54,145 bases of DNA, from the IMG/VR virus record IMGVR_UViG_3300010366_000002, positions 1-54,145 of that record; one strand, 5' to 3'. Below, one piece after another: positions 7,489 through 20,249 of the stretch. This stretch comes from a virus. Lineage: Duplodnaviria > Caudoviricetes. The notes under the pieces were generated by a model. The model ran no database searches. It was given only the letters and a program-made list of their open reading frames with translations, and was not told the DNA's origin. The translations under genes were made by a program, and so were the position numbers. Numbering within the stretch: the stretch's first letter is position 1; each line of letters opens with the position of its first letter.

Positions 7489-9705
7489 TTATTGCGCCCC
7501 CGTCCGATGCCGTATACGCCCGGCCAGAGCGCGGTACAGGGCTAACACGTTCGCATCGCTGAGAACCTGCGTATAGAGGCGCACGTCATCGAGCGTGCCG
7601 GTGCCAGTGACGACAAAGCCCGTCTTGTTCCAGCGACCGGCCTCAAACGCGACGTTGGTGAGCGTGCTGGAAGGCGCGCTAAACGGCCCCTGCGACGCCT
7701 TCAGTTGGCCGTTAATCCAGATTTTCCCGGCGCTGCTATTGCCCGCACCGCTTACCACGACATGGGTCCAGGTACCCAGATAGGGATGAAAGTCGGTATA
7801 CATCGAGCCGGGACCCCCTGGGCCGGAATCATCCCAGGTGCCATACTGCCAGTACAGCGTGCCGCCACAGGACACGCACACCCCCATCAAATTGGGCGTG
7901 ACACTGCCAAAGCCCAGACCTGGTCCATAGGTCGACCCGTCCGTGAGGACCCAGAACGCCAGCGTCACATCCTGATTCGCCGGCCAGCTCTCCAGGGTCG
8001 TCGCCACATAGCCCCCGCTTACCGCGATGCCAATGCCCTTGGCACCGACACGCCCCCCCACGTGGAGCGGCGGCGACGAGCCACTGAGCGCAGTAAGCGT
8101 GCCCGGATGCAGCGGGGGATCATGGATGGCCGAGTCCGCCGCACTGGTCCCCGTCGTCTCATCGAGACGCCAGTAGACATAGAGCTCCTGCGGGAGCGCG
8201 GGAGGGGCGGTGGTGCCGGCAAATTCCCAGGCGCCCATATCTGGTGCTCCCGTCCGTGTCGCACCACTGATGTCAGTCGTAATGCCCACGGCGGCACCCG
8301 TATTGACGGCGGGGCTGCTGGACTGGAGCTGAAACCATTCCCTGCCGCTTTGCCCCGCGGGCGCGCGATTATAGTCCAGACTCGGGTCGATATCCTGGTT
8401 CGGCAGCACATGGACAAACAGGGGATTGGGAGCCTCGCAGCCCACAGTGCCACAGTTCAGATTCGGGGTAATGGTATTTGTCCCGCTGCCTTCGCCGGTA
8501 TTGGAGATGGAATCATCATACGTCGTCATGCTTACCCGCATGGCCGTATTGCGCCACAAGAGGTTGTTTTCGACCAGGTTATTGTTGGCATTTGACGCCG
8601 CGCAGGCCCCGCCAGGGATGGGGGATCCGGCCCAGCCCCCCAGCAAAATGCTGTGATCGCAGGCGCCCCCTGACTTCAGATTCGCGTACACAATCGTGTT
8701 GTGGTACATCTGGTTGGTGTTGGCCTGCACATTGGAACAATTCTGGGCGAGGACAAAACCGCCCCCGTCGTGGGTTTGCCCATCATTCATGGTCGAGTGG
8801 AGGGGGCCGACACCCGTACGAAACAAAATATTGTTGTAGATTTGGTTCTCACTCCCGCAAATGAGCACCGGTCCGCCCGTATCATGGAAATAATTGTTGC
8901 GCAGGACATTGCGGTGGAAGTGATCGCCGGTGGAATAGCCATGAAACGCAAACCCGGTGGTGCGCGTAAATTCATTGCGCTCAAAGAGATTGTCACTGCC
9001 GCTAATATAGACGCCATAGGAAAAGACCGCCCAGTTCAAGGGACTACTGTTATCGCACATCGTCACTGGCGTGTTCGGGCCTACCCCAATATCATGAATA
9101 TAGTTATCGGAGAAGGTATAGAAGGCGCCATTGCCTTCCTGCCCAAAGCCGATAGTAAACGAGTCTGTATTGCCAGTCGTGCAGCCTCCCTCGATTTCAT
9201 TGTTAATGAACACAATATCATGCACGGATCCCGCGGCACACGGACCACCCCAACTCGTCGCGGCGCCGGCTTTGTTGAGAGGAATTTTGAAATGGAGGCC
9301 ATCCATGGTGACGTAATTCTTGGCAACGCCATCATCTTGGGTCGTACAGTTGGTAGAACGTTTCCCATTGCTCGTGAGGGTAGACGCCACGCCGAGCGTA
9401 TCCAGGATTGCTTGGCGCTTGTTGTCGGCTTTGAGTATCGTCGGCCGCCCGGAACTCCCCGCCGGGAGCACGTCATCCAGGGCCTCATGATAGATCCCAT
9501 CTAACAACACCAGGGTATCGCCCGAAGCCAGGCAGGAGGCACCTTTATTGGCACTATTGGCCGGGGTCCCGCGATTGGTGGCGGCTGAACAGTTATTATC
9601 CGGACCGCCAGGGCTGGCATAATAGGTTGTGGCCACACCGACGGACGCCTGGAGGAGCAGCCCGGTGGCGAGGAGCCAGAACACCCACGTGCGTCGTCGC
9701 ATCAT
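7489..9705 (-). CDS. Signal-peptide protein: right-handed beta-helix (pectin-lyase-like) + C-terminal LamG domain
   Basis: MMRRRTWVFWLLATGLLLQASVGVA-TTYY; NYFHD/NNILF repeats; PDMGAWE; YWRLDE...LDDVRLYTQVLS. Confidence 0.85.
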   Translation of the reverse strand: MMRRRTWVFWLLATGLLLQASVGVATTYYASPGGPDNNCSAATNRGTPANSANKGASCLASGDTLVLLDGIYHEALDDVLPAGSSGRPTILKADNKRQAILDTLGVASTLTSNGKRSTNCTTQDDGVAKNYVTMDGLHFKIPLNKAGAATSWGGPCAAGSVHDIVFINNEIEGGCTTGNTDSFTIGFGQEGNGAFYTFSDNYIHDIGVGPNTPVTMCDNSSPLNWAVFSYGVYISGSDNLFERNEFTRTTGFAFHGYSTGDHFHRNVLRNNYFHDTGGPVLICGSENQIYNNILFRTGVGPLHSTMNDGQTHDGGGFVLAQNCSNVQANTNQMYHNTIVYANLKSGGACDHSILLGGWAGSPIPGGACAASNANNNLVENNLLWRNTAMRVSMTTYDDSISNTGEGSGTNTITPNLNCGTVGCEAPNPLFVHVLPNQDIDPSLDYNRAPAGQSGREWFQLQSSSPAVNTGAAVGITTDISGATRTGAPDMGAWEFAGTTAPPALPQELYVYWRLDETTGTSAADSAIHDPPLHPGTLTALSGSSPPLHVGGRVGAKGIGIAVSGGYVATTLESWPANQDVTLAFWVLTDGSTYGPGLGFGSVTPNLMGVCVSCGGTLYWQYGTWDDSGPGGPGSMYTDFHPYLGTWTHVVVSGAGNSSAGKIWINGQLKASQGPFSAPSSTLTNVAFEAGRWNKTGFVVTGTGTLDDVRLYTQVLSDANVLALYRALAGRIRHRTGAQ

Positions 9706-9716
9706 GATCCCCTTTC

Positions 9717-19600: not shown

Positions 19601-19779
19601 TGCAACGTCCCCACCGGACCAATCGCGCCTGTCCCTCCACCGCCACCCCCGCCCGTCGCCGTGGATGTCGTGACCACGCCACGGGTGCCGGTGGGCGGCA
19701 GACTCCCGTACACCACCGCGGCGTGCGTCGGTGCCGCCATAAGCAGCCAGCAGAGGAGAAGCAGCATGCAGCCCAGCAT
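16624..19779 (-). CDS. Signal-peptide long tail-fibre-like protein with 100-aa repeats
   Basis: [23 protein letters not shown]-rich repeats with [20 protein letters not shown]. Confidence 0.85.
16960..18531 (-). repeat. Five ~300-bp coding repeats in the fibre gene
   Basis: AGGGNVS units start at 18531, 18231, 17931, 17490, 17190 (spacing 300, 300, 441, 300). Confidence 0.9.
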
Positions 19780-20249
19780 CAGGGAATGCCCTCAATCGTC
19801 ACTACGATGGTATCCGCGCCCGTGGTGCGGAGACACCACCACGCCTCGCGTCCTTCGGTGCCCAGAAGGATTTGCTCGCCAGCGTTGAGCAGGAGCCCGA
19901 CGGTCGACGTTGGCGTCCCCTGCGGCTTCGGCAGGCAGCGTATGGGGGCCAGGCCTTTGTTCCACAGGAGGCGACTGCACGCGGCAGCATTGACCGTTAA
20001 CACGTCCACCGGATTGACACTCACGAGGATATCACTGCCAGCGCCAACGGTACTCACCAGTGTCCTGGTCGGGGTACACACTTGCACCGTCTGGGCGCTT
20101 GCCTCCATGGGCCCACTGCCACCCCCGCGACTGCCTCCCCGCACGTACGGCAGCAGCCACCAGGCAACCAGCATTGGTAAGACCACAAACAGGATGAGGA
20201 CGGAGGCGCCCAGGCGGGCCCTGACAGGATGGAGACGGTGATTGCTCAT
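19779..20249 (-). CDS. N-terminal TM/signal protein with 4-Cys beta domain; paralog of 43927-44343
   Basis: [10 protein letters not shown]...[22 protein letters not shown] aligns with TPSATVGLTI...QAWSCIRQGGTDSSVTVGEDLP. Confidence 0.75.

Follow-up and report, generated by a model that had tools for sequence, protein, structure and literature searches.

Textbook tailed phages fold and assemble all parts of the virion in the reducing cytoplasm of the host. The tailspikes of the P22 gp9 and Sf6 type are leaderless, are built in the cytoplasm, and dock onto the particle via an N-terminal head-binding domain. Here we describe a set of phage proteins whose sequences make it very probable that they fold outside the cytoplasm, the compartment where the particle is assembled. 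They are encoded in the IMG/VR virus record IMGVR_UViG_3300010366_000002 (Duplodnaviria; Caudoviricetes), which we analyzed over its whole length of 54,145 bp (hereafter, the window) and which is the complete genome of a P22-like podovirus, with direct terminal repeats and a completeness rating of 100%. Eight minus-strand open reading frames (ORFs), designated g1 to g8, occupy positions 7489-20249, or 24% of the genome. Like the genes for P22 and Sf6 tailspikes, this module stands after the DNA-ejection genes, a position that in the P22 gene order is the tailspike gene slot; it also shares with them a beta-helix body (in g7 and g8) and variability between sister phages. Unlike those tailspikes, the g1-g8 proteins have N-terminal leaders, many paired cysteines, and, in g5, g7, and g8, a C-terminal laminin G-like (LamG) domain, and they have no recognizable head-binding domain.

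Virion proteins with Sec leaders are known from the Ff phages, whose g3p and g8p are of this kind, whose g3p contains disulfides, and whose assembly takes place at the membrane. However, the Ff phages are non-tailed and non-lytic and are extruded through the envelope, whereas the window encodes a head-tail phage with portal, scaffold, coat, and terminase. Lys44 of phage fOg44 and the signal-arrest-release (SAR) endolysins resemble the module in that they use the host Sec pathway and wait outside the cytoplasm until lysis, as set out in PMC6116005; these are single lysis enzymes, whereas the module is an eight-gene block of fiber, lectin, and beta-helix proteins without a peptidoglycan hydrolase family. 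WceF of Pantoea stewartii, as described in PMC7949094, is like g7 and g8 a beta-helix, tailspike-like protein with an export signal, and polysaccharide in the periplasm or biofilm is thought to be its target. In contrast to the module, which is phage-encoded and has Sec-type leaders and LamG domains, WceF is the product of a chromosomal bacterial gene and has a Tat signal for folded proteins, and the two are likened here by description. A protein of the cultured Bradyrhizobium phage ppBjS10J-1 (OP596615; WAX24465.1, 552 amino acids, annotated as hypothetical) shares the fiber repeat of g2, the ~100-residue repeats being 57% identical over 41% of g2. This protein has no hydrophobic leader, whereas g2 begins with a leader of 20 residues, differs in its N-domain, and has 12 cysteines beyond the leader. 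A literature search without subscription journals and supplements found no paper on Sec leaders combined with paired cysteines in fiber- or tailspike-type proteins of tailed phages. Sec-exported phage proteins and the export of a bacterial tailspike-fold glycanase are known already; a fiber and depolymerase module rerouted through export would be new. A quarter of this podovirus genome is given over to fiber, lectin, and beta-helix proteins with the sequence marks of Sec export and disulfides, and the families of its relatives are alike in this.

Hydrophobic leaders and paired cysteines

In order along the minus strand, g1 (19779-20249; 156 amino acids) consists of a basic N-terminus, a 24-residue hydrophobic stretch, and a domain of ~100 residues with 4 cysteines, and g2 (16624-19779; 1051 amino acids) consists of its leader, an N-domain of ~400 residues, the fiber repeats, and a cysteine-containing C-domain. 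They are followed by g3 (16028-16624; 198 amino acids), which has a 24-residue leader that contains its sole cysteine; g4 (15453-16031; 192 amino acids), which has a leader and a domain of ~160 residues with 2 cysteines; and g5 (14531-15451; 306 amino acids), which has a leader of ~20 residues and 4 cysteines. The remaining proteins are g6 (13001-14527; 508 amino acids), with a 26-residue leader and a fiber-like body containing 14 cysteines; g7 (9717-13004; 1095 amino acids), with a 27-residue leader, a cysteine-rich N-domain of ~415 residues, and 26 cysteines after the leader; and g8 (7489-9705; 738 amino acids), with a 25-residue leader, a beta-helix region, and 14 cysteines. The mechanically called ORF of g7 extends to 13433; we took its start as 13004 because an ATGA overlap with the g6 stop codon is found there.

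All eight proteins have an uncharged hydrophobic stretch within the first 35 residues (best 10-mer mean, 2.1-3.5), and in seven of them one to three Lys or Arg residues, and no acidic residue, precede the hydrophobic core; g2 has no such basic residue, and its counterpart in a sister phage has one Arg. This bears out the original prediction, made from the DNA alone, that every gene of the module starts with a hydrophobic, signal-like N-terminus that is mostly basic-then-hydrophobic. We also applied a crude rule of our own, under which a protein must have a non-negative n-region and, among its first 35 residues, a best uncharged 10-mer with a Kyte-Doolittle mean of at least 2.0. All 8 module genes pass it, as against 4 of the genome's 38 other ORFs (Fisher's one-sided p = 1.9e-6). 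Among these four is p148 (43927-44343, minus strand), a ninth leader-bearing protein (SSMA-Q, with the hyphen marking the predicted cut here and below) encoded between the terminase and portal genes. Its domain is 32% identical to the C-domain of g1 (BLASTP E = 1e-10), to which it is paralogous, and the sister phage retains a p148 that is 59% identical.

Cleavage sites were placed by eye. Small residues are found at -3 and -1 in six of the eight proteins, namely THA-A in g2, GYG-Q in g3, SFG-A in g4, CSA-Q in g6, TPA-Q in g7, and GVA-T in g8, and the three sites that had been quoted beforehand (VGVA-T in g8, VCSA-Q in g6, and PTHA-A in g2) are all present. The 24-residue stretch of g1 has the length of a membrane span and no cleavage-type site with small residues, so g1 looks like a signal anchor. 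Two other kinds of signal were rejected. An Arg-Arg pair of the Tat type is present in g7 and g8 but is not kept in the relatives of g8, several of which have a single Lys or Arg, and the hydrophobic cores are Leu-rich. As for lipoprotein signals cleaved by signal peptidase II, the cysteines in the leaders of g2, g4, and g6 have Leu, Ile, or Val at -1 when aligned by eye.

In g3, g6, and g7, and perhaps also g5, the residue at +1 of the predicted site is Gln. The same holds for all 11 of the closer relatives of g6, using a site chooser that favors Gln, and for 14 of 25 distant g6 relatives, using a site chooser that gives Gln no bonus. The genome has a G+C content of 51-66% and AGGA-type ribosome-binding sites are common in it, both of which would be unexpected for Bacteroidota. 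In these two respects the window differs from the organisms that follow the Bacteroidetes "Q-rule", with which it has in common the Gln after the predicted signal peptidase I site (PMC5837995). The same source gives high Q-values outside Bacteroidetes as well, for example 77% for Ignavibacterium.

The leaders are conserved in relatives of the module, a comparison that the original prediction had called for. The sister phage G001 (54,684 bp, with terminal repeats) has coat and portal proteins that are 96% and 95.5% identical to those of the window and has the module in the same order; its six counterparts of the module genes all have a hydrophobic start. Identical leader residues often stand on different codons in the two phages, and substitutions stay hydrophobic. 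In g4, the leader has been replaced by a different hydrophobic sequence and the mature part is 78% identical. The g5 proteins are 37% identical overall and 60-67% identical in the leader and first 80 residues, and identities are 83% for g1 and 41% for g8. By these sequence comparisons, the exported set, with g5 and g8 as examples, is the variable part between the sister phages, as against coat, portal, and a separate spike protein, SpikeN, which is 79% identical along its whole length. The sister phage has neither g3 nor g7; g3 is present with a leader in two metagenome loci (L079 and L080), and a homolog of g7 with a leader is present in a third (L081).

Four metagenome loci (L078-L081) came from a scan with a narrow C-terminal alignment (A4), a wider one (A3) being too diverse. 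A leader-like start was seen by eye, with over-extended ORFs corrected, in 19 of 19 cassette ORFs, that is, homologs of g1-g8 or large cassette genes; two fiber ORFs are cut by the locus edge, and five short ORFs with a low G+C content at third codon positions (GC3) and one 629-residue ORF at a locus edge have no leader-like start. Among N-terminally complete sequences, leaders are present in 11 of 11 closer relatives of g6 and in 25 of 25 further cluster representatives. The same is true of all 14 complete members of the g2 N-domain family (from 17 matches, of which two Val-start sequences on short contigs and one marginal match were set aside) and of all 14 N-terminally complete members of the g8 family, the other 2 of its 16 matches being fragments. 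Members of the g2, g6, and g8 families apparently lie on common contigs of 41,724, 91,967, and 100,146 nucleotides, matched by equal size alone, which hints that the set travels together.

The leader segments are, on this comparative evidence, translated, because the starts overlap or abut the upstream stop codons, the sister phage uses different codons for identical residues, and the g4 leader has been swapped and yet is hydrophobic. The starts and the conservation of the leaders in relatives both speak against true starts downstream of the hydrophobic segments, which the original prediction had named as the outcome that would overturn it.

Two sets of ORFs in related loci were seen alongside these. 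At L054 9575-10423, on a 141-kb IMG/VR contig, a 282-residue protein has a domain like residues 28-151 of g6 behind an internal, membrane-span-like segment that is not a cleavable leader. Cysteine-rich ORFs of 221-322 amino acids with a low GC3 (0.48-0.51) stand between cassette genes at L078 4217-4882, L080 2609-3289, and L081 5130-6098, and the window has none of them; they resemble mobile insertions of the endonuclease type.

The module proteins are also rich in cysteine, as had been described, with 84 cysteines in 4244 residues (1.98%) versus 1.33% for the rest of the genome and 0-0.9% for the portal, coat, scaffold, ejection, and Hc3 head-closure proteins. After the leader, g1 to g8 contain 4, 12, 0, 2, 4, 14, 26, and 14 cysteines, an even number in all eight, and in g3 and g7, which have an odd total, the extra cysteine lies within the leader. 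The six sister proteins have 4, 12, 4, 2, 14, and 12 cysteines after the leader, again all even (leader cysteines counted by eye). In the g6 family the count after the leader is even in 36 of 36 proteins (11 of 11 closer and 25 of 25 distant relatives; 8-18 cysteines), while 11 of the 25 distant representatives have an odd total, with the odd one always in the leader. All 14 members of the g2 N-domain family have even counts after the leader (8-22). The relatives in these counts are related to one another and are not independent samples.

As a control, we used fiber proteins that were matched by the same profile and share generic repeats alone, 116 of which have a Met start. By a loose rule, 93 of the 116 are leaderless. 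By a stricter rule 103 are leaderless, with a median cysteine content of 0.30%, and those with at least one cysteine divide into 43 with an even and 43 with an odd number. Because the counts in the leader-free part of the exported families shift only by twos and the control is flat, the cysteines there appear to be paired, which argues for leader cleavage and oxidative folding outside the cytoplasm. The persistence of the leaders despite sequence drift, together with the even counts as against the leaderless control, strongly supports the original prediction that the proteins are exported and disulfide-bonded, and we regard both as highly probable. Counting cysteines in this way also offers a cheap survey tool for exported fibers.

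Domain content and a separate spike

The Laminin_G_3 family of concanavalin A-like lectins/glucanases (PF13385; gathering cut-off, 27.6 bits) is matched by g5 at residues 99-267 (59.5 bits, E = 5.5e-16), by g7 at residues 928-1076 (85.8 bits), and by g8 at residues 564-720 (46.3 bits). The beta-helix family PF13229 is matched by g7 at residues 605-794 (30.3 bits versus a cut-off of 25.9). We assign a beta-helix to g8, which is a paralog of g7 residues 443-1094, by this paralogy and by precomputed PF13229 matches on its relatives. Choice-of-anchor Q (NF041518) is found at residues 826-864 of g7 (27.7 bits) and 458-495 of g8 (30.4 bits), scores that are barely over the curated cut-off of 25. With the repeats of g2, these matches agree with the fiber, beta-helix, and LamG content first proposed for the module. 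No family in Pfam, PHROG, or NCBIfam is matched by g1, g3, or g4, and no known family by the N-domain of g7, for which a score of 0.82 in the ESM Atlas is noise. The nearest ESM Atlas clusters of g4 are unnamed viral ones, with a sub-threshold lead to Bbp16 at 0.86. Among GenBank phages there is no match for g4, g6, or g8 (50,697 records for g4 and g6).

Several further leads on the folds of these proteins were rejected. DUF5907 (PF19264) was a candidate for g6, which matches no Pfam family even at E <= 5 and has short-motif matches to PF19264 carriers alone. An AlphaFold2 model of g6 from alignment A1 is poor (predicted local distance difference test score, pLDDT, of 59 overall and 70-89 in the C-terminal half), as is one of the g2 N-domain from alignment A2 (pLDDT 47.7). 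A Foldseek comparison of the g6 model with the PDB gave template-modeling scores of at most 0.17 on the query, and the tailspike and baseplate chains at its top were treated as noise-level. An anchor-and-tip pattern, with a conserved N-terminal part and a variable rest, is seen in g5 alone. We take the conserved part there to belong to the domain and not to be an anchor, because in one protein of locus L079 each of the two LamG domains has this motif in front of it.

The g7 and g8 proteins both end in a short basic tail after the LamG domain, encoded at 9717-9760 and 7489-7530, that contains Arg-His or His-His. Nine of ten long relatives of g8 share this tail (for example, RIRHR, RVSHR, AVRHT, and RPRHH), the exception being P0050, which has neither dipeptide. 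The tail could be a docking or sorting tag.

SpikeN (28422-29609, minus strand) is a leaderless protein of 395 amino acids with 1 cysteine, encoded between the Hc3 and ejection genes. It consists of a tailspike head-binding-type N-domain (residues 2-94), three repeats of ~45 residues, and a beta-rich C-domain. The N-domain matches PDB entries 9vyg and 9vyh ("Tail spike protein") and 7eeq ("Tailspike head-binding domain") with E-values of 6e-9 to 2.5e-7. Because the head-binding domain is on leaderless SpikeN and no recognizable one is on g1-g8, the particle appears to have a cytoplasmic spike of its own. The original prediction had regarded 7489-20249 as the entire tail-appendage module, which does not hold, since the sole recognizable head-binding domain lies outside it.

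Where the exported proteins may act

We propose that g1-g8 would make up a second group of proteins that bind the host surface and cut sugars, and that mature outside the cytoplasm. The N-terminal leader would, with high probability, insert each protein into the host Sec pathway. Signal peptidase I would then cut seven of them, often leaving Gln as the first residue, and g1 would stay anchored in the inner membrane. Folding would take place in an oxidizing compartment with the cysteines paired as disulfides, a well-supported step that would be impossible for a cytoplasmic fiber; to call this compartment the periplasm presumes a diderm host, which we assume from the P22-type ejection and SLT proteins. 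The proteins would wait in the envelope until lysis, and the P22-like particle with SpikeN would be built in the cytoplasm. At lysis, g2, g6, and perhaps g5, g7, and g8 would attach non-covalently to completed particles and add to their receptor-binding equipment. The enzymes may act in free form as well, and g1, g3, and g4 would serve as helpers or as small subunits.

The original prediction had named two fates, addition to the particle during or after lysis and service as a surface or matrix-degrading apparatus. We lean slightly and tentatively toward docking of at least the fibers onto released particles, because long repeat fibers would be of little use free, the module lies in the tailspike slot, and it varies like receptor-binding genes. 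Tail-less P22 heads accept purified tailspikes in vitro, and docking after lysis is therefore physically possible. A bolder and more doubtful version would see here a second assembly line in phages of some soil or freshwater bacteria, in which Sec-exported, periplasmically disulfide-linked fibers and glycan-cutting spikes snap onto particles at lysis, with cross-linking in the periplasm perhaps taking place on membrane-anchored g1 with g3 and g4 as helpers. If so, the parts that determine host range would come into contact with the particle only once the cell is no longer intact. Should the proteins be on particles by whatever route, phage assembly would have an unrecognized extracytoplasmic branch, and disulfide-stabilized receptor-binding proteins would be a new class.

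Several observations weigh against this proposal. On the side of export, the cleavage site of g5 is ambiguous, with Pro at -1 under one reading, and in the g8 family the cysteine count is even in 11 of 14 proteins, with P0051, P0052, and P0053 odd. On the side of docking, neither Pfam nor comparison with SpikeN reveals a recognizable particle-binding domain in g1-g8, none of which is similar to the SpikeN N-domain; g2 and g7 have no match to a particle-binding domain among PDB sequences; no docking partner or motif was found for the module proteins; and the six tailspike sites of the particle are presumably filled by SpikeN. Because the models of g6 and of the g2 N-domain are poor, predicted folds gave no help. 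Choice-of-anchor Q in g7 and g8 is defined by NCBIfam on bacterial proteins and fits free enzymes equally well.

The strongest competitor is that the proteins are exported yet never on the particle, and that free fibers, lectins, and glycan-cutting enzymes, released by secretion or lysis, thin the host capsule or slime or destroy receptors on debris, thereby helping progeny escape and spread. This is a serious possibility, which we hold to be doubtful on balance. It accommodates export and disulfides, the lack of a particle-binding domain in any of g1-g8, the leaderless SpikeN that the particle already carries, and the combination of beta-helix, choice-of-anchor Q, and LamG in g7 and g8. It also has parallels in Pantoea WceF, a tailspike-fold glycanase that trims exopolysaccharide and is made with a signal for Tat export (PMC7949094), and in the free phage depolymerase of plaque halos (PMC6116005). 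However, a repeat fiber of 1051 residues (g2) and a second fiber (g6) have no obvious free use, free receptor binders would compete with virions, and the same repeats are mostly found on leaderless phage fiber-type proteins (93 of 116). Likewise, the module lies in the tailspike slot and occupies 24% of the 54 kb of the genome, and crossing an outer membrane takes more than a type-I leader. If the proteins do act free, phages would secrete elaborate matrix-active gear.

Whether on or off the particle, annotation pipelines that discard proteins with signal peptides as non-structural would miss such proteins, and cytoplasmic expression of receptor-binding proteins or depolymerases of this type would probably misfold them.

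A role in the envelope of the infected or lysogenic cell, in superinfection exclusion by blocking or modifying receptors, in lysis, or in changing the surface, is unlikely. The membrane anchor of g1, its paralog p148 elsewhere in the genome, and the small membrane ORFs in the slot adjoining the module would suit such a role, and lysis genes are unaccounted for, since no endolysin, holin, or spanin was recognized anywhere in the genome by the Pfam and PHROG scans. On the other hand, the same scans found no integrase, none of g1-g8 belongs to a peptidoglycan hydrolase or exclusion family (NCBIfam included), and 12 kb of fibers and beta-helix and lectin proteins far exceeds known exclusion or lysis systems.

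It is less likely still that the N-termini are not export signals and that the proteins are cytoplasmic, with the hydrophobic segment serving in oligomerization or in tethering to the membrane from the cytoplasmic side, or being cut off by a phage protease. While g2, without a basic n-region, and g5, with its possible Pro at -1, would allow this, it leaves unexplained that the cysteine count becomes even only on exclusion of the leader, with the odd cysteine always in the leader, and that leaderless relatives show no parity. Sites of the Ala-x-Ala-Gln type, with the cut before Gln, also recur in distant relatives, and leader sequences have been replaced with their physical character kept. Finally, an artefact of wrong starts, of a chimeric assembly, or of the mistaken joining of host genes to phage sequence, which a metagenome-derived record and over-extended mechanical ORFs for g7 and several genes of related loci might suggest, is largely refuted by the terminal repeats and completeness rating, by the same gene order in the terminally repeated sister record, by starts fixed through overlap with upstream stops, and by GC3 values of 0.63-0.77 for g1-g8, which fall inside the span covered by the genome's other long ORFs.

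Gene layout and other genes of the window

The original prediction had placed the module in a tight operon after the ejection genes. The coupling holds within the module, where genes overlap by 1-4 nucleotides or are separated by 1-11 nucleotides, but a 476-nucleotide gap with opposite-strand ORFs (20250-20725) separates g1 from the SLT ejection gene. Because this gap contains plus-strand hydrophobic ORFs, at 20332-20583 (83 amino acids) and at ~20646-20717 (23 codons), the module appears to be a unit of its own and not a continuation of the ejection genes. Both of these ORFs are preceded by the same GGAGGTCGCGTATG. A tblastn comparison with the sister phage gave no counterpart of the 83-residue ORF, and a different hydrophobic ORF of 131 amino acids stands in the gap position there (L002 5427-5822, minus strand). 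We take the position of the gap to be that of the sieA/immI slot of P22, and by this analogy it may be an exclusion or moron slot.

The Pfam and PHROG scans identified, on the minus strand, the large terminase (44657-46090), the P22-type portal (40787-43144; Pfam E = 1.8e-131), the scaffold (35242-36288), the P22-type coat (33904-35178), the gp10-like head-closure protein Hc3 (30318-31814), a DNA-ejection protein (25604-27526), and a further large protein (23702-25591). The SLT ejection gene (20726-23698, minus strand) encodes a 990-residue protein with an SLT transglycosylase domain. The portal is ~30-34% identical to those of the nearest GenBank phages. No tRNA genes were found in the 54,145-bp genome, Tandem Repeats Finder detected no DNA tandem repeats, and a promoter and terminator scan gave signals below shuffle expectation.

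A search for the host did not find the portal protein in the 5 genomes behind L005, L016, L020, L022, and L035, nor in a sample of 401 genomes that belong to the same phylum as the source genome of L035, an uncultured Acidobacteriaceae. Profile scans of IMG/VR and of species genomes, in which generic fiber motifs were matched, gave partial matches alone and indicated no host, and IMG/VR scans with the SLT protein, P0007, and P0013 gave no matches.

Two genes flank SpikeN. An HNH endonuclease gene (29764-30321) lies on the opposite, plus strand between the Hc3 and spike genes, and a CxxCxxCC zinc/iron-chelating protein (PF03692) is encoded at 27946-28425 on the minus strand, between the spike and ejection genes. 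Elsewhere, a 746-residue protein at 46741-48981 is an SNF2-type helicase fused to an N6/N4 DNA methylase, and a second methylase is encoded at 36881-37636. A HAD-like ORF of 143 amino acids (32538-32969) inside the head-tail operon matches the PHROG "phosphoheptose isomerase" (E = 6e-11) and has no sister counterpart; it may be a moron that touches heptose or lipopolysaccharide metabolism. The large terminase gene of the sister phage (G001, ~44567-47935) matches that of the window in three pieces, separated by insertions of ~1.1 kb and 0.8 kb that could be introns, inteins, or homing-endonuclease insertions, whereas the gene in the window is uninterrupted.

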